Shown here piece by piece: positions 1 to 55,010 of a stretch of DNA of 64,000 nucleotides (positions within the stretch are counted from its first letter, which is position 1; every line of letters begins with the position of its first letter). Position numbers and translations under genes: made by a program. Origin of the DNA: Cyanidioschyzon merolae (lineage: Eukaryota). The stretch lies in the NCBI GenBank assembly GCA_000091205.1, contig AP006501.2. One strand, 5' to 3'. The notes under the pieces are model-generated. The model searched no databases, had not been told where the DNA came from, and worked only from the letters and a program-made list of their open reading frames with translations.

Positions 1-78
1 GCTGCTGCAGCTGGAGCTGCTGCCGCTACCGGGGCACCAGATACGGACCTTGTGGAACGAACGGATACGGAGACAAGG

Positions 79-1062
79 ATGGCTCTGCTCGATGAATTGC
101 GCCATGCACATGCCGCCGCCGCCGCTGCTACCAGCTCCAGCATGATTCATGGGCATCCCGTGCCCGCGACGGATCGCCGTTCGGTGAAGTACGGGCCGCA
201 CTGGCGATTCGCACCGCTTGCAGCCATTGCCGCGCACGCGCGCAGCCTCGCGACCCCTGGGGTTGTCACGGGAGTCGGCGAAACCGCATGCTCGACGCTT
301 TCGTTACTGAAACTGCTCGCGGAGGATACGAGGCGATTGGTTGACGAGATACTGATCCTAGCTTCTGGTACCGACGAAGCGGAAACAACAGAGCCGGCAA
401 AGCGCCTGCCCGATCGCGATACAACCACAGAGACGCTTGGACGCATTTTGCTTGCGTACGCACAGGCCTTGGTTTCTGTGGCGGAGGCGCAAGCAGGTTC
501 CGGAGAGTCGCAAAACACTGTGATGCATGACCTGGGAAAGACCGCTCTTCAGGCGCTGATCCAGGCTGAACGATCGGGTATTCGAGAACCCCATTTTCGA
601 CATGCACTCCGAACTTTGATCCGAGGCTTCGTACCCGCGACAGCATCAGCGGATTGTGTCGCTGCTATCAGCGCAATACTCGAAGAGCATCTTCCGAGCG
701 GACGCATAGAGCGAGAATCCCACCGCTTAGAGCTACTGTGTCAGGTGGTTACCCTGGGTCCGGATCTGCTTGCCCTAGCATCAGTATTGAGGCGTGCGAG
801 CCGTAACCAGACGTCCCACGTCCTGTCTGCGGTCGCGTGCCCTGACCTGAGGGCTCCTTGTTCTACCAAATGGTACAGGCAGGTCGTCCAGCTCTACGAA
901 ATCGGGGCCAGAACCATCGCGAATCAGCTAACTGGTTGTTGGCCGGCGGAAGACCTGCAGGAACACACCGCTGATTTCCTCGTCAACGGGGCGATGCAGT
1001 TGCCTTTGCTTTGTACAGGAAACCTATCAGAACACGATTCAACTGTTGCGCCTGTGAGATAG
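79..1062 (+). CDS. hypothetical Ala/Leu-rich protein; may be truncated by the window start
   Basis: Track ORF 52..1062 begins at GTG; first in-frame ATG at 79. No recognisable motif. Confidence 0.2.
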   Translation: MALLDELRHAHAAAAAATSSSMIHGHPVPATDRRSVKYGPHWRFAPLAAIAAHARSLATPGVVTGVGETACSTLSLLKLLAEDTRRLVDEILILASGTDEAETTEPAKRLPDRDTTTETLGRILLAYAQALVSVAEAQAGSGESQNTVMHDLGKTALQALIQAERSGIREPHFRHALRTLIRGFVPATASADCVAAISAILEEHLPSGRIERESHRLELLCQVVTLGPDLLALASVLRRASRNQTSHVLSAVACPDLRAPCSTKWYRQVVQLYEIGARTIANQLTGCWPAEDLQEHTADFLVNGAMQLPLLCTGNLSEHDSTVAPVR

Positions 1063-2501
1063 ATTCATACTGCCTGCTGTTTTCGCGAATGGAGGCAGTA
1101 TCGTGGACAAGTTGCCTCGTGTTGGCGCGTTCTGTGGCGGAGCGGACCACGCCACCACCAGGAAATCCATGATGACGCCCTATGGAGACCAACGGAGACG
1201 CCGCATCAACCCTCATGCGCAGACAAGGACGAAAACGATCCGAAGCGAGCGATAGGATGCACTGGTGGCGTCTGCTTGCGCGCCGTCTCCACCGGCCGCA
1301 TCACGTCGCCCGCAACAGAACACCGGTTGCAAGCATGGTTGCGCTTACAAGTCACCAGCGCGGGCCGCGCTGTGCTGTATGCCGCCTGTAGCCTGAGGCC
1401 GCTGCAGCCTCCGGTGCGCAGAACCCGAGCGATTCTCGAGAACTGCCACGTTACGCGGACACCCGTTTCTACTTTTCAGCAGAAGGACACACTCCCGACA
1501 GAACATAGCCTGGTACTTGGCGCCAGGGGCGTTGCAGCGACAGCAGCGCGGCGTCTCGCCTCGCCGTTGTGGTTGCTCGACAAGCAGAAGCGCACAGTCT
1601 GCGCAGATGCGAGCAGGTTCGAATAGCGCGTGCACTGCTTCACAAGTCACGCACTGACCGTCGCAGCGCGCACATAACAAGCCGACTTCACTGCCCTGTG
1701 TGCGGCCGCACTGAGCTCCGGTATGTTTCAGGGACATTTGCGGTGCGCTCGAGCGTCTCGCTTTCGCCTCCTGAGAACGCGACGGCCAACTGCACGCACA
1801 GTTCACAGGTTCAGACTCGTAGTTGTCGTGGGTTTCGTCAACTAAGCACCGCTGCGCCTTTAGACGGTGCCAGCGCGTCTCCAAAGCCGCCTAACGGGGA
1901 ACTCAGGAACCAGTTCGGTGTCAGACTTGGAGCAAAACTTTCAACCAGTGCGCTCGTTCCACACGTTGCAGTACCGTCAAATCAAAAGGTTGAGCACTGG
2001 CTTATCGGGTACGCTGAAAGACTCGGCTAGTCCAAGCGGACGCGTGTCTGCCAACGTAACACTGACTAGAACGCGGCCCTGTTTTGGTACTTGCTCCGGG
2101 GCTCGGTGGACCGCGATGGACCACGCGACGAGCGCGCTCTGGCAGGCAGCTGCACAGCGATGAAGTCAGAGGCCTGGGAACGCGCACAGCGCCGCGGAGT
2201 TAATCCGACGCGCGTCCGGAACGCCACAGCGCACCGTTTATGCCGCAAGTTGCAGAGCGCCTGCGAGCAGGCCGGCCCAATGAGCAGCTCGCCACAAGTC
2301 CATGAACTGAACGGGCGTTCAGCAGGCTCGGAACGTGCACAGCCTCCTGCTGTTGCGGATTCGACGTTAGCAAACGAGTTAGAAATCGACCAAAAGCCGC
2401 TTTACAACGAATGCACCGCATTTTCTGCATTTAGGCCCCGTTTCATGCCGTATATGTATGTCAACGCCAGTGCTTAGTCGCCGCACCGTCTCGGCAGCGT
2501 T

Positions 2502-3761
2502 TCAAGGTGATTCGGGTTCGGGTTCGGATTCGGGTTCCAGTTGCGCAACGATAACGCTCGCATCGTCACCCTTCCCAGGACAAACAAGTCTCGGCATGCG
2601 TTCCGATATGTAAGGATCGCAATTGGTGCAGCTGGAGAAGTTATGTGCGAGTTGTGCCAGTTGATAGCTTAACAACACTGGATCTATGTGGGTAAAGGTG
2701 CCCAAGCAGGTCCGATTCGCCACCGCCAGATTCGAATCATACGCAGAAGAGACCGGACACACCAGCGCGAGAATCTGGCTCTCACTGATATTATCGAAAA
2801 GGCCATCCGTCCCAAATATAACCGTATCGTACGCTCGTAGTCGGAACACGTCGAGGTAAATGGGCACCACATCACCCGTACACGTCTCGATCGTGATGCT
2901 GGTGCGTTGGGTTTCCGGATTCCCCTCGATGCCGTTGAGGCTCGAGAACACAATTGTTTGATCACGAATCACGAGGAACCCGATATTGCCTGTACGCACG
3001 GCATAGAGCAGATTCCCATTGTTTGCGAGACATGCCGCCAGCACCGACACCGAACGCACTGCTTCGGGCGGCCGCATATGCGTCACGGCATCACGGAGAC
3101 AGCTGAGTAGTTCGAAGCGTGGTTGCCAGTTTCGTCCTCGAGCGGTGTCTTGCTCCGATTCAGAAAAAAGCACCTGTTCAATGAACCCGTCTAAGATGTT
3201 GCGCACATGGTACTGCGCCGTGTACATATGCGCCAGTTCTACATCGCGCGTGTCCTTAATCGGTGCGAATGCCGCGCGAACAACACCACGCTCAGTGGCG
3301 TAGAGAACGTGACCGCAGTCCGCAAGGCCCACCGCGCCCTTCCCCTCGCAAACGAAGACCGTGTCCGTCGACCCCGAGAGAAGCAACGCCTCACCAGGAA
3401 ACGTTGTACCTTGTTCCGCACTAGGACGATCGCCGATGATCTGGTACGTTCCACACCGAAAGACGCACCGCTGCTCTGAGACTGCAAGCGGACGCTGCTC
3501 GTTGTGCGGCTCGCTCCGCAACGACAGTTTCGCCACGCCGCACCGCCGCTGTGCCTCGTGTGAGTGCTGACCGCGCAAACACCTCAGTGCAGACGCCGAC
3601 GAGAAGAGGCTTCCGCGATAAACACACGTGTTAATAACGAACTGCAACGGATTATCAGGTTCAACTGGCTGCCGCAACGAGCTTGGGGTTTCTTTGAACA
3701 GAGTGCCGCCTCGTTGCCTGCCGAGCGACCGCATGGCGAAAACGTACCGCCTGCTTGGCAT
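2502..3761 (-). CDS. PPM/PP2C-like protein phosphatase, divergent
   Basis: 419-aa ORF with an ATG start. PP2C-like blocks: LANNGNLLYAVRTGNIGFLVIRD (cf. VANVGDSRAVL), VIFGTDGLFDNISESQI (cf. LILASDGLWDV), C-terminal GKGDDASVIVAQL (cf. SKDNITVIVV). The N-terminal ~120 aa are not obviously PP2C. Confidence 0.4.
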   Translation of the reverse strand: MPSRRYVFAMRSLGRQRGGTLFKETPSSLRQPVEPDNPLQFVINTCVYRGSLFSSASALRCLRGQHSHEAQRRCGVAKLSLRSEPHNEQRPLAVSEQRCVFRCGTYQIIGDRPSAEQGTTFPGEALLLSGSTDTVFVCEGKGAVGLADCGHVLYATERGVVRAAFAPIKDTRDVELAHMYTAQYHVRNILDGFIEQVLFSESEQDTARGRNWQPRFELLSCLRDAVTHMRPPEAVRSVSVLAACLANNGNLLYAVRTGNIGFLVIRDQTIVFSSLNGIEGNPETQRTSITIETCTGDVVPIYLDVFRLRAYDTVIFGTDGLFDNISESQILALVCPVSSAYDSNLAVANRTCLGTFTHIDPVLLSYQLAQLAHNFSSCTNCDPYISERMPRLVCPGKGDDASVIVAQLEPESEPEPESP

Positions 3762-3872
3762 AGACAGTGACCGGAAAGCTGCACCGAAAACGCCGTTGTG
3801 CTCTTCTCGAGCCTGTGTTCCGAGACCTGCACGCCGCCTCCAACAAACGCCGTTCTAAAGAAAAGGCTGCTG

Positions 3873-6145
3873 TCACCAGTGGTACAGCAGTGGCGCGCCA
3901 CGCGCCCCCCAGACAAAACGTCTCGAGCAGATGCGCAGATGCCCTTCAGATTTCTTGAACCGGCCACCCAATACTGCTTCCAACTTCTTTTCATATAGTT
4001 CAACTTTGAGAGGTTGTCCAAGAAAATTTTCTCTTGACAGCTGTGGAGGTCGTTTCTCCAGCAGCGCACATTTCCTTATATTGATTGCGGCGTTAAAGTC
4101 ACGATTCACAAACTCCATATGTTTCTTGCCATTGGTAGTTGGACTCACTAGTGCAAGCAATCCACGAACTTTCGCCCTCCTTTTCATTTGCTCTTCCGTC
4201 AGCGGTCCGTACTTTTTTACATCCTCAGGGCTTCGCTGATATTTTTCCATCTCGACCGTCTGAAGTGTGCACCCCAGTTCATGGTGTGTATAGGACGTTC
4301 GGAACTCATCTGCAGGTATCGTAGCGAAGCTCCGTGCGCACTTCTTGTACGTTCTTGTTGTTGGAGCTGGCGTAGTTCCTTTTTTGGGTCCTCCATCGCC
4401 CTGCTCCGTATGCTACTACGAGCCTTTGACTTTCATCCTCCTTCAAGGCGCTCAACTGACTGAAAAAGTTGGCGACTGCAAGCCGCTTCCCACAATACAG
4501 GTTCATAAGCAGACGGGCCCATCGAGGCTTTGTATACTCCTCCCACAGCGCATCCCAATGAGCAACGCGAACTTCCATAAACTCCCGAAAAGCGTTAGAG
4601 TCCGCTCCTCGGGTCGTCACCTCGCTCAAAGCCTCCAGGTGCTCTTTCATTCCTGAATTCCATGTAATGATTTTCTTCCTTGCATTCATTACGCCGGATC
4701 CTCGGTAGTATCTCGCTCTCGAGAACCTCAACAGACGCATGTCTTTCTGACGTGAGTTGCCGTCAGTACCATCTTCCGCGCGCTTGGGAGCAGCGATGGT
4801 TACGATATTCGTAACCCCAGGGTCCGCGCCAACGACAAAGTCGTTATCCTGCACTTTCTGTGTGGCACAATCTGCCTCCTTCTCATCTTCATGCTTCGTC
4901 ACGGACACTATCGAAGACGGAACTGGACGATCCGCCTTCAAGCGCCGATAGTGAACACACATGGCTACTCCATCGGTTTCGATCACCCCTGTGAATACCT
5001 TTTGTTTGCTCACTTTCAGACTTGTGAAATCGAAGATATTCTTCCAGTACGTGTCCCGGTTTTCACCGGTACTCTCCTTCCTGCTGACATTAAACTCGGG
5101 GCTGAACTCCTTCATGATGCCGTAAAGGATTCTGGAATCGATAGTCACAAAATGTGACTCGATGTTGGACAACGGAACGACGTTGAAGCGCTTACCCAGA
5201 AGCGCAGCCTTTCGTCTCCCCCACTCTTCATTTTTTCCTCACTCAGCTTCATCTCTGCCTTGCGTTCGAGCTCACGGTCCAGAAACACAAAGTAACGCAG
5301 GACGTGGCGGTAGTATCTTTCGTTATCTTTTTTCAACTCTGATATGTTTGCTGCTCGGTTCGCCAACCCCAGTACCGCACGATGCTCTTGTATAGCCGCT
5401 CGGATGACGGAATCCTCATTCATGCTCCTGAGTGATTTCTTCTCGTCGATGAATTCAATCTCATCTTCATGCTTGCGATCGTTCGTGTTGCCATTGATAA
5501 TCGCCCATATCCCCTGGCGAATGAGACCGGGTAGAGTGCAAAGATGGAGCGTATCATGAAGTTCTTGAGGTTCATTGTTAAATGGTTCTTTAGACTGGTG
5601 AGGTAGTTCATCGCTCCGTAGGTGTAAATATTCGAATCCCCCCCTGTATCGAGTACCGTCGAAGCGGAACTCGGCGTAAATTTTGTGGAGGGCATGAACT
5701 CGCTCATTTCACCTAGACGTTTCACCGGTGCCAAGCATCCGGTGATGAAAAACGGTTTTGTTGAGAAAATCTTCCAGAATATGGACTGTTTTGATGTCCG
5801 TAACGTCATGATACCATTTTCTTAGGAAATCCACCATTCCTTGAGAAGCGTCACGAACACCGCTGGAGTTCGGCTCGACACGGTTCCAGATTGCCTCTCG
5901 AACGTTTTCCCTGTACGGATCCTTGGTATGTTGAAGAAGACAGGCTTTCACCGCCATCTCGTCGTACCGTCATCTTTTGCGTAGCCTTTGACGTAGGGCC
6001 TCCCGCTTTTACTTCTTCTTCTTATCCTGTTCCTTTGCACTTGGCACTGTTCTTCATTTTTTCGGGCTGCCGGCGACATTGGCGCCCAGGATCCTCCACT
6101 TCCCCTCCCGTAACTTTCCTTTTTCAATATAAAAAACCGAAACAA
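3873..6145 (-). pseudogene. Fanzor-type TnpB-like RNA-guided endonuclease gene with at least 4 frameshifts
   Basis: The reading frame switches between consecutive ORF segments. One example lies at 4250-4306: a third frame restores ...FRTSYTHHELGCTLQTVEMEKYQR. Catalytic-looking residues are retained. Confidence 0.65.
3876..6116 (-). mobile_element. Fanzor/TnpB-like element, copy A (~2.24 kb, degraded)
   Basis: Colinear ORF segments on the minus strand (5948-6145, 5709-5957, 5420-5809, 5145-5423, 4306-5172, 3873-4250) jointly encode a ~700-aa protein. It carries [12 protein letters not shown] (RuvC-I-like) and EFVNRDFNAAINIRKCA (the classical TnpB/Fanzor RuvC-III motif). Homology to copy B begins at ~6116 and ends just after the stop codon. 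Confidence 0.7.
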
Positions 6146-7199
6146 CTTTGGATGGTACAGCTATTACGCATAAAAAAGCACTTGAATACATTAGTGTGAA
6201 GGTTGAAACACGATTGAGGACAAACAATGGGCTTTTCTACGACTTGAAATCGTTAAAATTTGTACGATAGAGCTACATGCTTCATTTTTCCGATGGAAAA
6301 ACACTTACATTGACAATGGATCCCAGATTGTGCTATAAATGGGTATCGGATTTGGCGAAAGCATCCATCATGCTGCATTCTAACTCCAGATTCCATTACG
6401 TATACTTCCTTTCAGATGTACTACTCGTCTCGTGCTTCCTGTCATTCGCCGGGTGCATGCGTTGATGCACCCGCCTTAGCGTCTAATCCGCTGATGCCGA
6501 TGCATAACAGAGACAGGACAGCGTTGCCGTACTACTGAGGGCGTCGGATCGAGGAATGCTCCACCTGACACAGAGTCGGAGTATAGGATCATTCTGGGAG
6601 CCAGCAAGCTCCGCAGACAGACACACTGCCTGCGATAGCGTGAAGCTATATACCAGGACTCCACCGCGACCAGATCGACGCCCAGATGCAGTTTAACTGC
6701 CGCTAGTACCAGAATAAACAGTGCTGCAGACGAATTGCTCAGATTTCTATGCAGCACCCGCCACTGGGTGGCGAGCACGAAGCACGTGCCTGGGGTACTC
6801 GTCTGGCTCGCGGGTTTTTCCGTCGAGAAATTCAACTTTCGACAAAACGGGAACCGTGTTTCCTTTTTATCGTTTATCGTGCAGGGAAGATAAATTGGTA
6901 TATCGTTGCTAGTTAATGGTTAGTCTCTGTTCTTTGCTCTGTATGCTGCGGTCGGTTAGCGCGCCGGGGAGATCAGGTCGTACGAGACAAGACGCACGTG
7001 TCGCCGTTGAAAGGAAACGCGAAATTGTGAAAATCCGTTTTCTTATTGTTCTACCGTACAAGTTGTATTTGCGTTAAAGTCGTAACAAAGTAAAGTTGTT
7101 TCATGCAATTGTGTTTCAAACCTCAAGTAAGTGTATACAAATGATGTTTGGCAATTCAGATCAGAAGCGTCGAAAGAACCTTCTTCTTCTTCAAAAATA

Positions 7200-9416
7200 A
7201 AAAAGGTTATGGAAAAGAAACTGGAGGATCCTGGACATCTGGTGTCGTCGACTGCCGGAGACTGACGAAAAACATGGCGGAGCTAAAAGGAACATGAGAA
7301 GACGATGGAGCAAAAGAGGAAGGCCCGAGGTCAGAAGCTGAACGAACCACGACAGTACGACAAGATGGTGGTGAAAACCTGTCTTCTCGCACATATCAAG
7401 GATCCGTCCCGGCGAAGGCTGCGAGAGGCCATCAGAAACCGTATCGAGTCATACTCCATGAGTGTTATGATGGCTTCTGCAGGTATAATGCATTTGGTGA
7501 AGGAGATGCGCGACGACGTAACGGGCATCAAAACAGTCGAGGTTCTGGAAGAATTTTTCGGCAAAACCTTTATTCGTCACCTGATGCTTGGTACAGGGGA
7601 AACGTCGAGGAGAAATGAGCGGGTGCATGCCCTCTGCCAAAAATACTCCTTCTACAGCTCCAACGGTACTCGAGACAGGGGTGACTCGCATATTTACACC
7701 GTCGGGTTATGAAGCACCTCACGAACCTGAAGAACTATTTGACCATGAGCCTGGAACGTTTCATGATACGCGCCGTCTGTACGCGCTACCCGGGCCCCTC
7801 TCGCGAAGGGATATGGACCATCATCGACGGCATCACAAACGATAGTAAGAATGAGCAGGAGATCGAATTTGTTCACGGGAAGACATCACGCAGGAGAGCA
7901 AATGAGGATTCTGGAATCCGTGCAGCTATTAAAGAGCATCGTGTGGTCTTGGGGCTGGCGAGTCCAGCAGAAAAGATATCCGAGTTGAAAAAAGATTCGG
8001 AAAGATACGATCGCCTCATCTTGCGCTATACCATATTCCTGAACCGACAACTGAAATGCAAGACCGATATGGAGCAGGGTGTTGAAGCAAATGCAGTGTC
8101 GGAGAAACGGAAAGCTGCGCTTCTGGAGAAGCGCGTCAACGTCGTTCCGTTGTGCAACATCAAGTCACATTTTGTGAGTATCGACTCCGAAATCCCTTAC
8201 GGCATCATTACGGAGATCTGTCCAGTGTTCGATGTAAGCAACAAGCAGTTCACCGATGAAAACCAGGAGACGTACTGGAAGAAGAATATCTTCGATTCCA
8301 AACGTCTCAGAACGAGCAAGAAAAAGGAATTCACTGGGATGATCGAAAGTGATGCGATAGCCATGCGTGTACATTATCGGCGCTTGAAGGCGGATCGTCC
8401 AGTTCTGTCTTCGTTGCCGTCGCTGGCAAAGCGTGAAGAAAACAAAGAGGCTAGCCCAACGACGCAGGAGGTGCATGAGAACCACTTTGTCGTTGGCGCG
8501 GGCCCTGGGAACACGAATATCAGGACCATCACAACACGCAATTGCGGGGATGATGGCATCGACGACAACCTACGTCAAAAAACACATGCGTGTTTTAAAG
8601 CTTTCAAGAACGAGATATTACCGAGAATTCGGTGTGATGAATGCAAAGAAGAAAAGTGGGGCGTGGAACGCAGGATTGAAAGAGCACCTGGAAGCGATCA
8701 GCCAGGTGACGGGCCGGGGAGCGGACTTTCACGCTTTTCGGGAGTTTATGGAAGTTCGTGTTGCTCATTGCGAGGCGCTGTAGGAGGAGTATACAAAGCC
8801 CCGGTGGGCTCGGTTGCGTATGAATCTACACGGTGGGAGCCAGCGTGCGTTCGCGAGTTTTTTCAATGAATTGAACGTCTTGAAGGAGAGCGACAGTCAG
8901 AGGCTCGTACTAGCGTATGGAGCAGGGCGATGGAAGACCCGAAAAGGGTGTACACGAGCTCCAACTACAAGAACGCACAAGGAGTGTGCAAGGCGTTTCG
9001 TTACGATACCTGTAGATGAGTTACGAACGTCGTATACACACCATGAACTGGGTTGTACGCATCATAGAGTGGAGATGGAAAAGTACCAGTGAAGCCCTGA
9101 GGATGTAAAAAAGTACGGAGCGTTGACGGAGGAACAAATGGAAAGCAGGGCGAAAGCTCGTGGACTACTCGCATTACTGTGTACAAACAAAGATGGCAAG
9201 AAACGTATGGAGTTTGTGAATCGTGACTTTAACGCCGCTATCAATATAAGGAGATGTGCGGTGGTGGAAAGAAGACCTCCAGAGTGGACACGATAGAACT
9301 TTGTTGCGCAATCATTCAAACTGGAACTGTATGAGAAAAAGTTGGAGGCAGTAGTAGGTGGCCTGTCCAAAAAGGCTGGGAGGCGTCTGCACGTCAGCCG
9401 AAGACGATTTATCTAG
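7200..9416 (+). mobile_element. Fanzor/TnpB-like element, copy B (~2.2 kb, degraded), inverted relative to copy A
   Basis: ORF segments 7305-7712, 7709-8869, 8433-8783, 8814-9092 and a 9095-9416 frame are colinear with copy A at ~55-65% aa identity. RuvC-I reads [10 protein letters not shown] (D to G). The C-terminus reads MEFVNRDFNAAINIRRCAVV with in-frame stops (MEKYQ*, ...EWTR*). Confidence 0.7.
7305..9416 (+). pseudogene. Fanzor-type TnpB-like endonuclease gene, inactivated (frameshifts, stops, RuvC-I D to G)
   Basis: As above; the aligned sequence contains stop codons. Confidence 0.65.
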
Positions 9417-10217
9417 CGCGGGTTTCTCGCCACTACTGTACACGGCCGCCGGCGACGTTCGTCTTTTAGGGCGTTCCTTGTGTCGGCGATACCACGGACC
9501 AGCAGCAGGCGACCGCGCCCATCGCCCGAAAGAAGCAACCGGTTTCGCGAGCTGGACGCAGTACGGCGCTCTGCCCTGTGCGCCTTTTGTGGCTTTCAGG
9601 TACGCGGTCTACCGCTCCGGACACTGCTCCAACAGTCTGGCCGGTCCTTGATTACGACAAGTAGCGCTGAAAGCAAGCCTTTCGTGCACGGAAACTGAAC
9701 GCGAGTCGGAGCACTGTTCGTCACACAAGTGCTGGGTTATCCGTTCTCGTCCCTATCATAGACGTGTGTGTGTGGGCGTGCGGGTGGCTCCGCTTTGCTC
9801 CTCGAGATTTTCCCTTCCGTGAAACGGGGACGTGTCTGCAGGATTATGTGACGTACGCGAGTTTGATCGGAAGACAGTTACTGTCAGGAAAGCGCTGGCT
9901 GGAGCTGCCCGCAAGACGACTGGTCGCAGGAGGTGTTTTCGTGGTAAGCGTCACCCTCGCCGGCATCACGCTTTACCACGGGTGGTATTCCAACACACAA
10001 AGCATTCAAGACGATCATGTCCGGAATGGCTCTGTGGAGACGTGCGACTGCGCCCCGCTATGGAGATGCATGCAAGCGTTCGGTAGCGAGCACGCACCAG
10101 AGTGCGCAGCGGAACGAAGCAGCCTCCTGCGCTGCATGGCGCACAGCAAGCCTTCTACATCATAAACATGAAGGGGCACCATTGGCGGCCTTTATGTGAC
10201 TGTGCAAAGAAGTGACA

Positions 10218-10853: not shown

Positions 10854-11431
10854 TGATGGCGGTTCACGCCTCCAACAGGCACCCTTTTGGAGTCGACCTC
10901 AGTGCAGCAGCGTAGCGGTACCTGGGGGGGAGAATTCGCTGCACCCCACACAGGATTCCGTTGCGCGAGCTGTGCACGCACTTTGGCGAGCATTCGCGCT
11001 ACCTCGATGGCCAGCGCGCGCAACCGAAAGCGCAGCAGCGCCTCTGGCACGAATGGCGCCACCAAACTGCCTTCCGCAGCTTGCATGGTGGATGGTGTCG
11101 GATTGTCCAGGTTATGCGCTTATGCTAATGTGCGCGACGCGCATCGGCATCAAGGGTACCTTCTGGGCGCAAGGTCCAGCGAATCGGATACGCATACGGG
11201 GCCAGTGCGCTTTCTGCGCCTACCCACTGTGGTGGGTGTCAAGCACAAACCCGCATTGCCAACCGACAACAGCGCATTCCATGCATGATCACGAAGGAGA
11301 GCGGCGGCTCCCAGCATTCATCCTAACAGCCAAGTTTCTCCAGCGTGTCGTTCAGCAAAGGCAAGCCTGCATCCGCAGACTGTCCGAGCACATACCGACG
11401 ACGAGACCCGATTCTACGTCGGGTGAAGCAC

Positions 11432-11750
11432 GCCTCAAGCCGACGCCCTCTCGGGTATAGAAAAGCTGTTCTAGCTCTATGAACTATCTGCTCTAGCATT
11501 TAAGGTCCAAAGGCGGATACGGAACGGCAGGCACTAGGCACACCCGATGGGACGTATGAAACGGCCGGAATATCCGAGAAGAGGTATCGGTAATGTAACT
11601 TGGAGGTTCGGGGGTTTGATGGACACCTTACCGCCCACTGAAAAAAACCACAAAAAAAGTAAGAAACAAATGCGCTTAATCGGAGAACGCTGGCCGAAGT
11701 AAACGTGTTGTCAGTGAAAAAAATCCGAACGTGCTGCTGTGGTGGCATAT
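11432..11750 (+). repeat. dispersed ~320-bp repeat R1, copy 1
   Basis: Colinear with 18490-18808 at ~80% identity, from agccgacgccct...ctagctctatgaactatctgct through an A-rich tract to gctgctgtggtgg. Followed by an AT-rich 50-bp patch. Confidence 0.7.
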
Positions 11751-15204: not shown

Positions 15205-16019
15205 GGCCCTGCACTGACCCAGCATCCGGACGCAAATAACCAGTGCCGAGAGGTGTACTCGTCGTTGCTGCGACTCCTGAACTTTTCCAGACGATCTAGC
15301 ATATCGCGGATGACACTGAATGCAGGCGAGAAGCTTCCCGTGATCAAGTCTAGAATTCGCAAAACCTTTTCATTGCAAGCAGCAACATGTCATAATGTTG
15401 CACGAGTATAACCATCGGTTTTCGTATTGCAGCGCACGAGGGACGACGACCCGTCCGCCCAGGAGGCTTGCGGGCACGCTGCTGCGATCGCTGGCTCGCT
15501 CCTGGTGCTCAACGCGAGCGCCCCGGATTCTCCATATGTGTGGGATCACGAGCGTACCCAGTCGCTCGTTTCCTGGATGAAACGTGTGTGCACGAAGCCG
15601 CGCTCTCTGTGGTCGAATTCGCTACCTTAACCGTTGGCAGCGAAACCACCAGCTCGATACGTGTACTGAACTCACCGGTGTCGTGATGAAAACGCATTTT
15701 ACGAGTTTTCGAGGGTTTGTGCAAGCTCGCACACCCTCGACAGCAAATGCTCGTTACCGATCATGCTTCGGATCACAACATGGATACGTTCAGCGTGCTT
15801 CTACGCTAGATGCCGCCTTTCTTCATCTGGATCGCCGCTTACACATGCGGGATATTCGGCCAAGGACGCCCGCATCGCGAACCCTGATCGCTCCAACTTG
15901 GTATCATGTATGTTCAATAGAGCGAAAACGTTTCGCAACCATGTAGGTTCAATGAATACCCAGGCGCAGACGCCTCCCAGCCTGTTTTGACCAGCGGCCT
16001 GCTATCGGTTTTGATTTAC

Positions 16020-16215
16020 CCAGGTGCACCTGTAGTCTGGGAGGCTGCCCACAAAGTTGGATCGCGTCAGTTCTGCGGATCTGGCCTTCAGCACCGCACA
16101 TCGTCTGATATTGATGGTGGCGTTGAGGTCTCGGTTCTTGATCTCCTTGCGTGCAGTGCCACTGGTTGAACGCACGATTGCAAGAAGTTTTAGAACTCGT
16201 GCTCGCTGTGCCACT
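16020..16215 (-). mobile_element. solitary internal fragment of a Fanzor/TnpB-like gene (RuvC-III region)
   Basis: The minus-strand ORF encodes ...RARVLKLLAIVRSTSGTARKEIKNRDLNATINIRRCAVLKARSAELTRSNFVGSLP. This matches RAKVRGLLALVSPTTNGKKHMEFVNRDFNAAINIRKCALLEKRPPQLSRENFLGQPL from copy A. It is more diverged than the other copies. Confidence 0.55.
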
Positions 16216-16861
16216 AGAGGCTCGCCTATCCAACACCTCTTCTTCTGCTTCTTCGTCGTCGTCGCTTGTGCTTCTTCTTCGCTCGATCGTCAGCAAGAAG
16301 AGGATTTTTCGGCAGCGGACGATAACGGCCCTTCAGGATCCCCGACTTTCACGCCCATAACTTTCCCTTGCACTCCTTATTTCTTCAAATGAACACACCT
16401 TGAATGCATCAGCGCTAACCAGCGAGACAGCCTTTGATGAAACGCATCTAGGGATTGGAAAACAATTCAGGAGCATGTCAAGGACACGACGATGCGGGAA
16501 TCGCGCAGGCATCGATCGGGCGACGCAGGCGGGTGCACACGCTCCAGTTCACACTGAAACGTAGGAGCAGGCGGTTGAAAGGCCCTCGCGTGGGCAACAA
16601 CGTGCTCTGCGTTGCTTCGGTGGCGTTCATAGCAAGCTGTTCAGGTACGGGGTTTGTGAGGTCTGGCTTGGCCCAGGTGTGAGCAAGCTCTGCTCATAAA
16701 CGTTATCTGTAGTCGGTACGAAGACGATGTTCTTGAACGCAGGCTGTGTGCCACGTCGTAGTGGGCCTGGGTCTCAGGCACGCCCCGTACGAGGTCTCGG
16801 ACGTGAACGCAAGCTGCGCTGGAGCGCCCGGTTCGCGAGGCGACGAGTGGCGTTTCTTGAC

Positions 16862-17122: not shown

Positions 17123-18489
17123 CTTGTCGCTCTGTAGACCAGGACTCAGAAAAGGATCAAGGCCCCTGGGCGTTTAGATATGCGTCTGCCCAGCATCCAA
17201 GAACAGACTTGATCGGTGAGCAACAAATGCTCGGCGATACTGCGGAGATATTCTGTGCTCCTGTCGCTTGGTGCGCACCGCTCTAGGCCGCCTGAGCGTT
17301 GCAGCGTCCAGATTGTCTGGGGCGCGCGTCAGGCACTGCTGGAAGACCCGTACCAATGCCCTGCGAGCTGGTAGGCTGACACCATCCCTGCTACAAGAAT
17401 GATGATATCAAGCATGATGCGTACCCAGCGTTTCTCTCGCTCAGACGCTAGCATGAAATATGGCTGAAACGTAGAACAAGCATGCGAATATCTCCGCGAG
17501 ATTTGCGTAAAGGAAAACGCTATGCGCTCTGACGAACCAGAATGGCACTCGAGCTGAGCATTCCCTGACGCCGTGACGGACGGTGCTCGGTGGACCAGTT
17601 CGGTACGCGATCAATGGGCAGGCAAGTCACCCATCTGGTGGTGATGTCCTTGCGTTGCGGGGTGGTCGCAGCTGCCCAAAGTGCAAAATCCACTCTGACC
17701 TGGTTTGGACTTGCTCGGAAAGGCGCTCCCACAGAGCACATGCTGTTTTGTTCTCGAGTTGCAGCAAACACCGGCGTGCTCCTGTAATTTGAGGGCAAAC
17801 GCTCCGTTGTCAGCAGTTGCCGCGCTAGCGTCACGCGGTTGCGAACGAAGGCTGGTTTCCAGTCAGGCCGATCCCGAGGCTGCCTCGCAAACTTGGTACC
17901 ACGACGAGTACGCACGATCTGAACATTCAGGCGCATTCTGGATTTCGAACCTGTCCAAGTCGGTGGTGCAGAGCAGACTACACGGACGCGCACCCACAAT
18001 GAGGCCGGCTGCCGGGAGCTCAGTCTCTCTGCTTCCGCAAATGCAGCCGCGCTGCCCTCGCCTCCCGGAGCGCCTCGCTGCCCTGTGGAACAGAGCCATG
18101 TACGCACCGGCGACGTTTCTTACGCCAAAACTTTCCGAATTGTTGACGACTATGCACAAAGTGCGCCACTGCACCCGCCACGCGGCGGCGACACGGGCAC
18201 GTCAGCCACAAAGAACCCGTAGCGTGCTTCGCCTGGATGCCTGCCGCCGGTACCTGGATATCAAGGCCTCGTCGATACCGCGCCAAGCGTTAGCGGTGCG
18301 CTTAGCACGCATCGATTCGTTCAATGGATACAGATCCAGATCCGTAATACAGTACCCAGCATGGTACATATCCTAGCGCTGGAGGAGGCGCTCACGTCTC
18401 AAGTTGTCGCGCGCCCGCTCATCATATTCAGGCAAAGCGGCCTGTAACGGCGCTGTGATCGCAAAATGCGCATACAGGAATCGCTACCC

Positions 18490-18808
18490 TCGAGCCGACG
18501 CCCTTTGTGCGGTACAGCAACGCAGCGCTAGCTCTATGAACTATCTGCTCCAGCGGTTCAGGCGCAAAGGCGGATACGGAACAGCAGGCACTAGGCACAC
18601 ACGAGAGGACGTGAGAAACGACCAGAATATCTGAGAAGAAGTATAGGTAATGTAACTCGGAGGTAGGGAATTCGGTGGATACTTCACCGCGCACTGAAAA
18701 AAAAACAGAAAAAGAAAAGAAAGGAAAAAGCGCGTAATCAGAGAACGCTGGCCTAAGTAAACGTTCTGTCAATGAAGAAAAATCGAAATCGCTGCTTGCC
18801 GGTGGGCG
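18490..18808 (+). repeat. dispersed ~320-bp repeat R1, copy 2
   Basis: See copy 1 (11432-11750). Confidence 0.7.
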
Positions 18809-20004: not shown

Positions 20005-22506
20005 ACTCATTGAGAAAGATACGTAAACGGCGCGTGCGCTCCACGCCAGACCGAGGCGTAGCAGCGAATCATCCGTACATGGCCCCCGATGGGACACGCT
20101 ATTTGTGGCAGCGGTCCGCGAGAAGAAAGCGATACCGTCGCGCTCGTACTTGCTGCTTTTATGCGTATATGAGTGGATGACGCAACCCAGGCGATCGAAA
20201 CGTCTACAGCCCGGGCGCGAAAAATGAAGCAGACTGAGGGTAACGGCCGTTTGCGGATCAATCGCAAATGCACCCTGGAGGCGCACCCTGCTGACGTCGT
20301 ACGATCACGTTGCCGGTCCAGAAAAGTGGGAATTCACGCGAGGCATTCCTGATGTGTCGACAGAGGCAAATGACAGGCTGGTGGCGGTGGAGGAGCTCGA
20401 AACGCTTCCGACTTTGGACGGGACATCGTCGCCAGCGCACGAGTCGCGTAGCTGCGTCCGAGTTCATCGTTTGGCGCTCGGCCTCGGGCTGACGGATATC
20501 GTATCGTAAGGCTGGTTTACGCATCATGTCTGTCTTCGTTGCATCTTGCGCTCCTACGTGTTCCTCAACGGACCCGTATAGAGCAAAGCAGACGACGCCC
20601 TGTCCGAATACTAACGCCTCGCCGCCACATGCGTTTCTTCTACGCGTCTCCCATATGTCACATCAAGGGTAATGATGGCATCGTAGACACGTTTGACCTG
20701 CATGGAGTCACCAGGGATCGACGGCCGGCCTCTCCGAGCAAGAAACAAGCATTCGACCGGCGTCGCGAAGCGCATGGACGGTGCTTATCCCAGGTCTCTC
20801 GTTCACAGATACAATGCGGAGCGAATGAAAATCCATATACAGGCATTTCGTGAAATCTCGACCCGAGTCGAGCAACGAGACTCATTCTCAGCCGCTCACC
20901 GTAGATGAAGAGATGGACCTGGAGATGCCGGGCTGAAGAACCTCATTGCCGTCGATGCAACGCTGCGTCAAGGAGACACAGCTAGAGACCTGAACGGAAA
21001 ACAGATGAAACGAGGCAACGTTACCGGGGCTCGTCATAATCCGTAGTCGGGCATGGCAGATGCCGGGACGCATACCAACAAATGGGATGAGGTCGTCGAG
21101 ACCGGTCTCGACACTCTCGACATCGTACTGAATAGTGGCACATGGCTTGTGCGCTTCATGTAGAGAGACTATCAATGTGTAAATCGCTCATGCGGACGAG
21201 GTTTTTGGCAGGACAACACGAGACCGCGCCAGAACACCAGCGATTTCAGTTGTTCAAGGGCGAGAAGCTCGCATTCGCCTACTTGTTCAATGCCTTGGAA
21301 AAGCAAGTAACTGACAAGTCGCGTTGTTAGGTAGTGACCCACGGCGCCGAGCACGCTGTAGCGCGCAAGGGCTGCTTTCGCGCTACCTCGTCCATAGCCT
21401 GCAACGAGCACGGGGATCGATTCGAAACGATTCCCATGGATGCGTCCAGGACGGCATCCATGAATCATGAGCAGGAGCGCACGCTGCAACAAATAGAGAA
21501 GAAGAGCGCCAAACAGAGACGGTTGCAAGAGGTGATGTAGAATACGCGGACCGGACCTCAAATGGCGAGACAATCGTAAGCGAGAGGCTTGCTATGGAAT
21601 GACTCCAGAGCTGGCAAGCATGCGCGCAAACGTGCTTCGCACTCAGCCTTGAACGCGTCAATGAACATCCAAAAACATGTCGTGCTTGCAGAGCGCCCAG
21701 CGGCTCTGTGTCGAGGCAAGTCTCTGACGGAATCGTTCAGTACCCAGTTTGGGCATCGTGCAGAAACGTTGCGATCTGGCGATGAGCGAAAATCACTGGT
21801 CACGAGAGACGGGATTGGATCCTCGCCTGGAGCAAGGCATTGGCATGGTCGGGTTCCGCTCTGTCACGAACCGCTGGAGCACCGTCTTCACACAACGGGA
21901 ACGATTTTGCGGGGTTACCGGTCGACGAAAATTCGTGCCCCATGGTTATCGATAACCGATTCCAGCACACTTGTTCTTCACGCCGTATCAGAAAAGAGGC
22001 GCGTCTCATATGCAATGCTCGTCATATCGACGCATTCCACGACGGGGTCCAGGGCCTGGGCGGGTCCCCGCTGAGCCTCGGCGACGACGACGTCGCGCGC
22101 ACTGTGCGCAACGGCACGAAGGCGGTTGTGCGGCACGCCTCAGAAATACAGCGCGTACGGCACTTTTGCCGTTTCGCATACATATCCACGCATCAGAGAC
22201 GCGGTCCTTACCGAGTACCTGGGCAGACTCGCGTCCTGCACACGACGCCAGCACAGAGTCACGTCGACGGATCGCAGCCGATGAGAGCAGTTGCAGAGGA
22301 TGCCTCCGAGGACCCGTGAGCGATTCCTCCACAGCAGCCGCCACAGCAGCCGCCACCACGGCCACTTCCATGTACGATGGTTCCGCGAACGATACCGGGA
22401 ACTGGCCCCCATCGGGCCGTGTTACGCGTCAAATACAACGCGGAGATTCTCTCGACAGCGTCTACCGACAGCAGAAGAAGCAACGCGCATCCGCGTTTCA
22501 TCGACG

Positions 22507-29598: not shown

Positions 29599-29749
29599 TC
29601 CCTGGTCGTTATCCACGAAGCGTTCGCTCGAATGACGCACCCGGTGAATGCGAAGACAACCCTGAAAACAAACCCCTTTCAAAAGAAAAACGTTGCTGCC
29701 AACGGTGTACGGTAGTGGCGACCAGCGCCTAAGCCTTGACGTCTCCAAC

Positions 29750-30200
29750 TGACGTGTAGACGCCTCGCCGTCTTTCTGGACCGGCCGCCTACAACTGGTT
29801 TCAATTGTTTCTCATATAGTTCCACTTTGAGAGGGTGTCCCACAAAGTTCACTCTTGTCCACTTTGGAGGCTTTTTCTCCATCATCGCACATCTCCCTAC
29901 ATTGATTGCTGCGTGAGAGTCTCGGTTCGCAAATTCCATACGTTTCTTGCCATCACTGGTAGTACTTACTAGTGCAAGCAAACCACGCACTTTCGCTCTC
30001 CTTTCCATTTGATCTTCCGTCAGCGCTCCGTACTTTTTTATATCCTCAGGGCTCCGCTGGCACTTTTCCATCTCCACTCTCTAAAGAGTACACCCCAGTT
30101 CATGGTGTGTATAGGACGTTCGGAAAGCATCTACAGGTATCGTGACGAAACGCCGTGCACACTCCTTGTGCGTTCTTGTCGTTGGAGCTGGTGTACACTC
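29750..30200 (-). mobile_element. 5'-truncated Fanzor/TnpB-like 3' fragment (zinc-finger region + RuvC-III + 3' end)
   Basis: Minus-strand frames give ECTPAPTTRTHKECARRFVTIPVDAFRTSYTHHELGCTL then MEMEKCQRSPEDIKKYGALTEDQMERRAKVRGLLALVSTTSDGKKRMEFANRDSHAAINV...RRLHVSWRR. These are colinear with the copy A/B C-termini. Confidence 0.7.
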
Positions 30201-30552
30201 CAGAGGGTGGAGATGGAGAAATGCCAGCGGAGCCCTGGGGATATAAAAAAGTACGGAGCGCTGACGGAAGGTCAAATGGAAAGGAGGGCGAAATTTCGTG
30301 GATTGCTTGCATTAGTAAGTACAACCAGTGATAGCAAGAAACGTATGGAGTTTGTGAACCGAGAACTTAACGCGGCAATCAAGGTAGGGAGTTGTGCGGT
30401 GATGGAGAAAAGACCTCCAGCGTTGACCAGAGAGGATTGTATGGGGCAACCTCTCAAAGTGGAACTATTTGAGAAAAAAATGAAACCAGTAGTAGCTTGG
30501 CGGCCCAGAGAGGCTGGGAGCCGTCTGCACCTCAGCTGGAGACGATTTGTCC
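30185..30552 (+). mobile_element. 5'-truncated Fanzor/TnpB-like 3' fragment, inverted partner of 29750-30200
   Basis: The plus strand encodes VEMEKCQRSPGDIKKYGALTEGQMERRAKFRGLLALVSTTSDSKKRMEFVNRELNAAIKV...SRLHLSWRRF, ~80% aa identity to its minus-strand partner. The junction lies at ~30184, where homology switches strand. Confidence 0.7.
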
Positions 30553-30642
30553 AAGGCGCGTTCGCCGCCACGACTACACACCGCTGGCGGCAGCGGTTCT
30601 CTTTTGAAAGGCGTTATCGGACTAGCCTCTGATTCATCAAGG

Positions 30643-53114: not shown

Positions 53115-54309
53115 ATGGATTCGGGACCAAGCAGTTAAATGGCACAACTTGCCTAGCGAGGCGTCCAGCGTTTCGTGCCAGAGACGGTGTAGGCGGTGCT
53201 CGTGCTCGTTACCTGCAATCACAGGTTTCGGATCAAGTGCAAGCGGTGGACGCTGGACCAGCGAGGCGTGGCGTTTACGTCATTTCCATGTGCCGACGCT
53301 GCGTGATACGAAAAAAACAACAGCATCGCCAGATGGTGCGCGTTTTTGGCGCGAGATAAGGCTCTTCCCCGGAACGCAAATCCTATTTCTCACAGGGCAT
53401 CTCCGCAGCTGGTGCCGATTCGAAGAGACCTTCATCCGCCAGCAGCCAAGGGTGCCGAATCGCGACTCCAAAACCCCCTGCTGGGTATTAAGTCGTCGGC
53501 GCCTCGCTGGACGCCTCATGTGCGCATCCGTTTCAGACTGCCTCCCGATGCCGAGCACGTGTCAGCGCGCATGCCACACGGAGCTGGCTTGCCTCTATCG
53601 GAACCAAGAAGTCGACTGCGACGGTCGCATACGGTCGAGGTGCATCTGGCAATCTTCTCGTTGGCGCATTGCCCGAGAAGCGGCTGAGAAGCACCGCCAC
53701 GAACGTCAACGAGGTCTTCCACTTGATTCTGGTTCTCGTTGCAGTGCGCGCATGCCACTATGGAGACAAGAGAACCGGCCCTTGCTTCCAGAGGGAATCC
53801 GCATAAGGTTTGCTGCTTTGGTGCAGCGTCATCTCAAACGCTCACGAATACGCTTTCTCAACGGGGTAATCGGGGATGAGGATCCTAGATACCGCCTGAT
53901 CTCCGGGCCGAGGTTCGCATACCTCGAGCGATTCCTGGAGCTGCCGCTCTGCTTGTAGGCACAGTGCGAGGCAAGCTGCTGCCATGATAAACGTAATCCC
54001 GATAGGTAGTGCCGCCGGATATGACCCTAAACGAAGTGTGTGTCTTTGTGGGTGCGCGGAGATTGGGCTACTCGTTTGTTGAAGCGGATGCGTGTCAACC
54101 AGCATGGATGCAGTTCCATCGGTGTGAGCTGGAGTGTGCAAAACACCGCATAGCCATTCCGTATCCATACAGCAGTAGCAGCAGCAGCAGCAGCAGCAAT
54201 CGTCAGTGAAAGAAAAAACTGTTTTTACGAACACGGACGGTAAATGAATATCAATATATGGACGCCTCCTAGCCGTTTTCGACCGGCCCCCTGTTATCGG
54301 TTCCAGTGT

Positions 54310-54480
54310 ATCCGCTGTACACCACGAGCCTGAGAGGTTGTGCGATAAAGTTAGATCACGTCAGCTCTGCGGCTCTCGTCTCCAGCACAGCATACTGCCT
54401 GATACTGGTAACAGCGTTGAATTCTCGGTTCACGAGCTCCTTGGGTTTATTGCCTCTGGTTGAACACATCCGTGCATGGA
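54310..54480 (-). mobile_element. solitary diverged fragment of a Fanzor/TnpB-like gene (RuvC-III region)
   Basis: Minus strand encodes ...RGNKPKELVNREFNAVTSIRQYAVLETRAAELT*SNFIAQPLRLVV, colinear with GKKHMEFVNRDFNAAINIRKCALLEKRPPQLSRENFLGQPLKVEL. The listed plus-strand ORF 54306-54512 is its antisense frame. Confidence 0.5.
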
Positions 54481-55010
54481 TCACTAGATCTCGTACCCTC
54501 TGTGCCACTTAAGTCTAGCCTACTTCCCTCTTCTTCTTCATATCACTCGCTCTTCTTCGCTCGATAGTTGGAGCGAAGCGAATTTTTGTCGTTGTTTTCC
54601 GGCACCCGGCGAGGAAGGCACTCCAGGAGCCCCGACGCTCACGTTCATACCTCTGTATTTTTATTTCGTTACATGAACGCACTTTGAACACACCTGCTCG
54701 ATACCACGAAAAAGCACATTCTTCCACGCACCTGAGGCTCAATCATAATCGGAATGAAAGATGCTATGCAGCGCTCATATCCCGCTTTACGTATGAAACG
54801 TTGCCCGTCGTAACGCGGGCTGTACGATGAGGGCGCTCGACGCGGGGCACACGCGTCAGGCGCGTGCAGCACCATCGTGAACAGTTAGGGTTTGGCTGTT
54901 TTCGCTGACGTACCATACGAGAACGTTTGGGATCAGAGGCTTGACTTGGCCTAGACTTTGGCTTGAGATCCGCACGCGTTGCGGAGCACCATTACAATAG
55001 TTACGTCGTT

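Follow-up and report, generated by a model that had tools for sequence, protein, structure and literature searches.

We analysed a 64,000-nucleotide (nt) stretch (hereafter, the window) lying close to one end of chromosome 19 of the thermoacidophilic red alga Cyanidioschyzon merolae 10D. Within this window, the interval 3873-5172 is almost certainly the 3′, RuvC-nuclease half of a dead copy of CMe-1A, a Fanzor1 transposon. This copy (copy A) and its neighbor (copy B) are two members of a Fanzor1 transposon family already published for C. merolae (Bao and Jurka, 2013, Mobile DNA 4:12; PMC3627910). Neither is a functional autonomous Fanzor1 gene, as neither contains an uninterrupted open reading frame (ORF) with both a start codon and an intact catalytic triad. 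The locus carries little weight as a discovery: the 2013 paper already covered the family together with its host, copy number and decay, and the function of Fanzor1 has been known since 2023 (Saito et al., 2023; PMC10432273). To the 2013 description we add exact lesion maps, the reality of the lesions, structural support for the triad and the absence of the C4 zinc finger. Our analysis establishes that the family is homologous to Fanzor1 and shares its fold and active-site geometry, and that copies A and B are inactivated.

Self-comparison of the window revealed two diverged, head-to-head copies, at ~3882-6117 on the minus strand and 7203-9441 on the plus strand, that are 76% identical. As references we used the 3169-bp CMe-1A consensus and the 734-aa CMe-1 protein from the additional files of PMC3627910. 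A blastn comparison of the consensus with the window identified at least eight CMe-1A-derived pieces (Table 1), and the frame-corrected A and B proteins are 78% and 73% identical to the CMe-1 protein. CMe-1 is the single Fanzor1 family listed for C. merolae; CMe-1A comprises ~150 copies, each sharing ~80% identity with a ~3-kb consensus, has no terminal inverted repeats, and its target-site duplications were not determinable in 2013 (PMC3627910). Copies A and B share genome and family with these elements, their divergence fits the published value, and no inverted repeat joining the ends of copy B was found in the window self-comparison. Nothing essential sets them apart from the published copies; they are two of the roughly 150 reported. 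Copy B includes the 5′ ~635-bp module common to TE-N2_CMe. The G+C content of the flagged region is 0.48-0.49, versus 0.55-0.60 around it.

Lesions were called by codon-by-codon alignment of each copy to the CMe-1A consensus. In addition to its frameshifts and premature stops, copy A has lost its start codon ATG, the first 734 bp of its 5′ end are missing, and its natural stop codon is mutated, with the frame continuing to 3873. An earlier note on this DNA, made from the sequence alone, had counted at least four frame changes in copy A. This number is right for the whole copy, where we find six, but not for the interval 3873-5172, which contains only the shift at ~4385, where the consensus reads CCC-AAAAAGGG and copy A reads CCCAAAAAAGGA. 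Four of the six lie downstream of an internal methionine that was probably used as the start. The shift that the note had placed at 4250-4306 does not exist: this segment is the stretch from the stop codon that closes the old frame (4306) to the earliest ATG in the correct one (4250), and the correct frame is open from ~4400 onward, ahead of that ATG. Copy B retains its start codon, natural stop and 5′ end and contains one in-frame 3-nt insertion; the in-frame stops attributed to it are present, five in number, together with two frameshifts.

Using three-frame translation of the window, we located every motif peptide that the earlier note had quoted from the two copies. Copy A retains all three residues of the catalytic triad, D431, E603 and D672. 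Copy B still has E603 and D672, and only D431 is lost, through a GAC to GGC change; both observations agree with the initial reading of the motifs. A search for D431G in independent data found no support: no metagenome locus that we retrieved spans 8387-9467, and there is no record of the exact 386-aa product of the copy B ORF. Given these lesions, neither copy is able to make a nuclease, as had been proposed: copy A has neither promoter region nor start and contains six frameshifts and four stops, and copy B contains two frameshifts and five stops and carries D431G. The description of copy A as close to intact applies to its well-preserved RuvC half but not to the copy overall, with its frameshifts, stops, missing start and 5′ truncation.

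The assignment to Fanzor1 came from the relatives of these proteins. With the 692-aa protein reconstructed from copy A, we obtained 50 metagenome protein matches, some of which are tagged Pfam DUF8286; the best E value, 8.5e-290, is far beyond chance. A phmmer search of copy A against Protein Data Bank (PDB) sequences returned only noise, and a family profile was required. A second search with the alignment of the matches yielded 139 relatives, many intact at 600-700 aa, of which 112 were aligned for the profile. The candidate catalytic residues D/E/D are conserved in 112/112, 112/112 and 111/112 of these relatives, the remaining row being gapped. The profile matched the solved Fanzor1 chains of Parasitella parasitica (PpFz; E = 1.1e-17), Spizellomyces punctatus (SpuFz1; 1.1e-11) and Guillardia theta (GtFz; 0.023), which supports the initial reading of both copies as TnpB/Fanzor-type RuvC nuclease genes. 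In the profile alignment to SpuFz1 (PDB 8GKH), the family D/E/D falls on chain residues 777/935/1000, which, after subtraction of a 394-residue tag, correspond to D383/E541/D606. In SpuFz1, these residues coordinate two Mg2+ ions (Saito et al., 2023; PMC10432273). Thus, D431, E603 and D672 align with the triad of a characterized Fanzor, and the Asp of GADPG, whose role the earlier note had left to such an alignment, is the RuvC-I catalytic residue. An exhaustive HMMER search with the profile recovered 6602 related clusters at 50% identity, 905 of them at E <= 1e-30.

Structural modeling gave the same result, so that the role of the GADPG Asp has direct confirmation from both structure and profile. 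An AlphaFold2 model of an intact 676-aa relative, P0046, had a predicted local distance difference test (pLDDT) score of 91.8 and a predicted template modeling (pTM) score of 0.89. In a Foldseek search of the PDB, the seven top matches of this model are Fanzor1 structures without exception (SpuFz, PpFz and GtFz; E 2.5e-17 to 3.3e-15), with template modeling (TM) scores of 0.54-0.66 when normalized to the query and 0.53-0.74 when normalized to the target, over ~670-800 alignment columns; the resemblance spans the entire model. Cas12f, Cas12i and Cas12o rank well below them. From this model, the A/B family is Fanzor1, with a predicted overall WED/REC/RuvC/NUC fold like that of the solved Fanzor1 structures.

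SpuFz1 has been shown experimentally to be an omega-RNA-guided DNA endonuclease (Saito et al., 2023; PMC10432273). The P0046 model resembles its structures (PDB 8GKH and 9CEU-9CEZ) with TM-scores of 0.64-0.66 (query) and 0.71-0.74 (target) over ~670 columns, the triad occupies the same canonical D/E/D positions, and in both cases the protein is the single-ORF cargo of a transposon. However, sequence identity is only ~14-16%, SpuFz1 elements carry 30-nt inverted repeats whereas CMe-1A has none, and an omega RNA and a target-adjacent motif are known for SpuFz1 but not for CMe-1A. With bacterial TnpB (IS200/IS605, for example ISDra2) and Cas12f, the family shares a RuvC fold with an inserted TNB/NUC domain, and Cas12f, Cas12i and others are distant structural matches to the P0046 model (E 1e-2 to 3e-4). 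Unlike TnpB, the A and B proteins match neither Cas12f1-like_TNB (PF07282, the former OrfB_Zn_ribbon) nor another Pfam TnpB family, the CMe-1 REC region is much larger, the host is a eukaryote, and there is neither a TnpA partner nor a zinc finger. One relative, P0001, reaches PF07282 only at E = 0.23. The CMe-1A element contains no transposase gene, and with the missing Pfam TnpB match as well, A and B do not qualify as prokaryotic TnpB of the IS200/IS605/IS607 type. As expected of Fanzor, the family is carried on a multicopy transposable element of a eukaryote, which is evident from the number of pieces in 64 kb and the eukaryotic host genes around them.

CMe-1A is thus a roughly 3.2-kb multicopy transposable element whose single gene encodes Fanzor1, the eukaryotic relative of bacterial TnpB/Cas12. 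By homology, an intact CMe-1 member should be an RNA-guided DNA endonuclease with a WED/REC/RuvC/NUC body. Its D431, E603 and D672 would bind two Mg2+ ions and cut DNA, presumably where directed by a guide RNA made from the element's 3′ end, as in characterized Fanzor1 systems (PMC10432273, PMC11423790). Just upstream of the RuvC-I Asp, the relatives P0001, P0008 and P0018 contain 2-5 tandem repeats of a ~25-aa unit (KHEE.KEA.PATQEV.DND.VV.A; alignment columns ~450-570) that duplicates the strand leading into the catalytic Asp. The unit is single in copy A (4837-4920), in copy B and in the consensus.

To check whether the lesions are real, we scanned JGI metagenome contigs with the C terminus of copy A and recovered 79 loci; in all, this contig scan showed 199 related stretches in hot-spring metagenomes. 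Two of the loci represent the same locus in environmental relatives: L003, which is 99.4% identical to positions 1-6459 of the window, and L004, which is 98.5% identical to positions 1-8386. All six frameshift contexts of copy A are reproduced exactly in L003, and five of six are kept in L004; the sequence at the ~4385 frameshift is identical in both. Since two independent metagenome assemblies reproduce the frameshifts, they are not sequencing errors. Some lesions are polymorphic, since L003 has CGA in place of the premature stop at 5970-5972, and L004 has CGA in place of that at 6054-6056. Among the 81 loci retrieved, only L001 and L013 contain a nearly full-length ORF of the CMe-1A type (consensus aa 11-699); L002, which encodes the 40%-identical relative P0046, is intact as well. 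As few of these loci carry an intact ORF, intact copies are rare in nature too.

In L004, differences from the window are clustered. Although the two sequences are elsewhere ~99% identical, 12-15 substitutions per 40-100 bp occur in 5521-5615, 5724-5797, 7347-7417 and 7635-7668. One patch in copy A adjoins a 1-nt repair of the frameshift at ~5528, and the copy B frameshift at ~7701 is repaired ~35 nt beyond another patch. Such patches arose either when CMe-1A copies exchanged sequence by ectopic gene conversion or when repeats were assembled into a chimera. No direction of change could be inferred for L004, as both alleles match the consensus about equally often.

Copies A and B each resemble the consensus (84.2% and 82.8%) more closely than they resemble one another (76%). 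Synonymous divergence (dS) is 0.36 between A and the consensus, 0.25 between B and the consensus, and 0.52 between A and B. The corresponding ratios of nonsynonymous to synonymous divergence (dN/dS) are 0.30, 0.56 and 0.43 overall, and 0.24, 0.35 and 0.33 in the RuvC half. Since the divergence between A and B exceeds that of either copy from the consensus, these values fit two independent old insertions, whose lineages diverged under purifying selection on the protein before the copies decayed neutrally. The dN/dS pattern matches a remark made in 2013 on the long-lasting coding capacity of the family (PMC3627910). We also considered a nested insertion of B into A and rejected it: the missing 5′ 734 bp of A are absent beyond the 3′ end of B, and the sole nearby piece, at 11407-11607 (consensus 87-282), is too distant and too partial.

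We weighed four other explanations. One is that copy A is really an intact, active Fanzor1 gene whose frameshifts and stops were introduced by faulty sequencing or assembly, a reading to which we give practically no credence. Although the shifts at ~4385, ~5236 and ~6062 fall in A-runs and that at ~5644 falls in a G-run, and homopolymers are classic error sites, the sharing of frameshifts with L003 and L004 speaks against it, as do the four premature stops of copy A that were made by substitutions, its lost ATG and its missing 734-bp 5′ end. The result is a clean negative: A and B are true pseudogenes, not assembly artefacts. Just as remote is biological restoration of the frame, through introns or programmed ribosomal frameshifting, such that the locus still yields nuclease. 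Splicing is possible in principle in a eukaryotic host, and dN/dS below 1 reveals past constraint on the protein. However, every frame change is a 1-nt insertion or deletion relative to a continuous, intron-less consensus ORF, no inserted block with splice sites occurs among the frame changes, and the stops arose from substitutions inside conserved coding sequence. Moreover, copy B is without its catalytic Asp, and C. merolae genes have very few introns.

The arrangement of A and B, head to head with their 3′ ends outward and with a gap of just 9 bp from the truncated 5′ end of A (6281) to the 5′ end of B (6291), would also be produced if they were arms of one ancient inverted duplication, formed by fold-back repair of a break inside an element, and the same topology recurs at 29675-30613. 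We nevertheless regard such an origin as very unlikely, as the identity between A and B (76%) is below that of either copy to the family consensus (84% and 83%), dS between them (0.52) comes near the value obtained by adding their separate distances from the consensus (0.61), and the arms do not end at a common consensus position (735 in A, 1 in B). We also doubt strongly that the dead copies are useful in trans, their 3′ ends supplying guide RNAs for a Fanzor1 made elsewhere or gene conversion resurrecting their ORFs. Such a role could account for the over-representation of 3′-terminal fragments in the window (C, D and two short deletion derivatives) and for the coincidence of the L004 substitution clusters with repair of the frameshifts at ~5528 in A and ~7701 in B. 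Yet no conserved RNA structure was detected, an Rfam scan of the whole window returned no match, and the L004 patches are equally explicable as chimeric metagenome assembly of paralogous repeats.

Since the earlier note had remarked on an atypical zinc-finger segment between the motifs, we compared this region with SpuFz1, whose NUC domain has a CCCC zinc finger between RuvC-II and RuvC-III, as in TnpB (PMC10432273). The C4 zinc finger was described in 2013 as strictly conserved in the Fanzor motif, with no mention of its absence from CMe-1 (PMC3627910). The segment is indeed atypical, as the CCCC ligands are absent. The quoted peptide, RTHKECARRFVTIPVDELRTSYTHHELGCT, exists in the sequence; it is, however, from copy B (8970-9059), outside the interval under discussion, and straddles RuvC-II. 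The copy A equivalent is RTYKKCARSFATIPADEFRTSYTHHELGCT (4266-4355). The first Cys of the quoted peptide (KEC) lies upstream of the RuvC-II Glu and so cannot belong to a TnpB-type zinc finger. In the profile alignment, SpuFz1 SVCPRC...GLLGCTNPNC is opposed to CMe-1 YTHHELGC...GLLALVS. Ligands C1 (Cys548), C2 (Cys551) and C3 (Cys586) of SpuFz1 correspond to His610, Leu613 and the Leu in GLLALV of CMe-1, and C4 (Cys591) has no counterpart.

Loss of these ligands extends well beyond copies A and B. Among the 112 relatives, the C1 column contains Cys in 9 and His in 50, the C2 column Asp in 60 and Thr in 33, and the C3 column Cys in 74. By pattern matching, 207/233 relatives (~89%) have neither CxxC pair; both pairs occur in 10/233, all of them distant members, and distant members such as P0326 retain CxxC...CxxxC. 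Since most relatives are without the ligands while the triad stays invariant, loss of the CCCC set is a trait of the CMe-1 clade and most of its subfamily rather than decay of A and B. His610, His611, Cys615 and Cys625 of the CMe-1 consensus may form a substitute metal site, and Cys625 is changed to Tyr in both A and B. The one mildly new point is that the zinc finger is missing clade-wide in the CMe-1 subfamily. The subfamily (DUF8286-type; the 905 clusters at 50% identity and E <= 1e-30) is generally without CCCC with its active site kept, which bears on which parts of Fanzor are dispensable in the engineering of compact editors.

One speculative reading, which we think unlikely, is that the CMe-1 clade is a naturally zinc-finger-less yet still active RNA-guided Fanzor1 nuclease, with dead copies partly kept alive by ectopic gene conversion. 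The nuclease part is suggested by the invariant triad and a RuvC-half dN/dS of ~0.24-0.35 despite loss of CCCC, and the frameshift-repairing patches of L004 hint at the gene-conversion part. If true, the clade would offer a heat-adapted eukaryotic genome-editing scaffold, and the TNB zinc site would be dispensable in Fanzor1.

A number of points weigh against our main reading of the locus. We found no nuclease activity tests on the zinc-finger-less CMe-1 clade in the literature searched, and for intact copies elsewhere in the 10D genome, which the earlier note had suspected and the literature states to be present, the 2013 paper is our one source (PMC3627910). Scanned against Pfam, neither of the two reconstructed proteins matched a family at E <= 1, and the only precomputed family for the relatives, DUF8286, is a weak one. 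The modeled protein, P0046, is a relative 40% identical to copy A and not a protein of the window. Our searches for a guide (omega) RNA of CMe-1A gave no direct evidence of one, and we make no claim of one. RNAalifold applied to 60 aligned, mostly dead 3′ ends found essentially no consensus structure. In a sliding-window z-score scan of the CMe-1A consensus, the last 150 nt had z = -2.8 versus shuffled sequences (-2.3 to -2.8 across the 3′ end), a mild and unexceptional excess of stability, while some coding windows reached -3.3 to -3.5.

The 3′ terminus of the element yielded two further observations. Between the stop codon and this terminus lies a 7-bp GC-rich hairpin (GCCGCCA...TGGCGGC) with a T-rich run behind it, both in the consensus (nt 3119-3146) and in copy D (30565-30595); in A, B and C the feature is degraded or displaced. 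This hairpin could be a transcription or transposition signal. In a set of ~60 CMe-1A copies (A-D of the window and loci L003-L081), conservation continues past consensus nt 3169: the bases that follow read TT(T/G)GT(T/G)G (25-50 of 60 copies), and a weaker resemblance extends for ~20 nt. From this alignment, the true 3′ boundary, or a target preference, lies further out than the 2013 consensus end. A tRNA scan found none.

Table 1. Positions of CMe-1A copies, their lesions and motifs, further CMe-1A-derived pieces and host genes in the window
Feature	Coordinates	Strand	Details
Copy A	3848-6281	-	consensus nt 735-3169; 84.2% DNA identity over 2445 nt; 5′-truncated; Fanzor1 ORF is a pseudogene
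Copy A 1-nt frameshifts	~6082, 6062, 5644, 5528, 5236, 4385		n = 6
Copy A sole frameshift within 3873-5172	4376-4390 (~4385)	-	1-nt insertion in A-run
Copy A premature stops	6054-6056, 6009-6011, 5970-5972, 5709-5711		n = 4
Copy A RuvC-I motif	4807-4836	-	Asp431 codon GAC at 4824-4822, retained
Copy A RuvC-II DEFRTS	4293-4310	-	Glu603 at 4307-4305, retained
Copy A zinc-finger (TNB/NUC)-equivalent	4107-4292	-	YTHHELGC...RGLLALVS; CCCC ligands absent
Copy A RuvC-III NRDFNAAINI	4077-4106	-	Asp672 at 4100-4098, retained
Copy B	6291-9467	+	consensus nt 1-3161; 82.8% over 3186 nt; full-length element; Fanzor1 ORF is a pseudogene
Copy B 1-nt frameshifts	~7701, 8583		n = 2
Copy B premature stops (first nt)	7263, 7284, 8781, 9090, 9294		n = 5
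Copy B RuvC-I motif	8489-8518	+	D431G: GGC at 8501-8503; consensus GAC
Copy B RuvC-II DELRTS	9015-9032	+	
Copy B degenerate zinc-finger-equivalent	within 9015-9248	+	internal stop 9090-9092
Copy B RuvC-III NRDFNAAINI	9219-9248	+	
Copy C, 3′-terminal fragment	29675-30195	-	consensus 2645-3167; 86.4%; also profile matches
Copy D, 3′-terminal fragment	30185-30613	+	consensus 2739-3169; 85.2%; also profile match
Short deletion derivative	15966-16425	-	consensus 844-959 + 2849-3084; ~70%
Short deletion derivative	54261-54759	-	consensus 793-969 + 2872-3081; ~70%
5′-module piece	11407-11607	-	consensus 87-282; 74%
5′-module piece	18488-18667	-	consensus 84-256; 77%
CMS015C	2502-3761	-	PP2C-type phosphatase; exact 10D protein match
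CMS028C			locus-tagged host ORF; exact 10D protein match
Prolyl-tRNA synthetase			BAM82674; among five exact 10D protein matches

Five of the six host ORFs that we submitted to an exact-sequence look-up matched C. merolae 10D proteins, all from a single record of 1,282,939 bp, which identifies the window as C. merolae 10D. Other ORFs in the window are typical of eukaryotes, encoding Vps52, SSRP1/Pob3, Sec1 and cystathionine beta-synthase.

The smaller CMe-1A-derived pieces fall into several types. Like A and B, copies C and D are head to head with their 3′ ends outward, in this case with an overlap of ~10 bp; two occurrences of this topology in 64 kb suggest an insertion or repair bias. The short elements at 15966-16425 and 54261-54759 are 80% identical to each other over 311 bp, and both join a piece of the CMe-1A 5′ untranslated region and start region (~793-969) to a 3′ piece (~2849-3084). 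Both resemble members of a single non-autonomous family of deletion derivatives. The pieces at 11407-11607 and 18488-18667, which match only the shared 5′ module (~84-282), are probably TE-N2_CMe-type remnants. Finally, the window contains a far more heavily degraded relic of a different Fanzor1 lineage at 20327-21795 on the plus strand, with ~31% aa identity to CMe-1 and collinear profile matches. Its recognizable motifs are LRSYVFLNGP; FETIPMDASRT, in which the RuvC-II Glu is replaced by Ala; and RGLLWNDS...KRASHSALNASMNI, in which the RuvC-III Asp is replaced by Ala.

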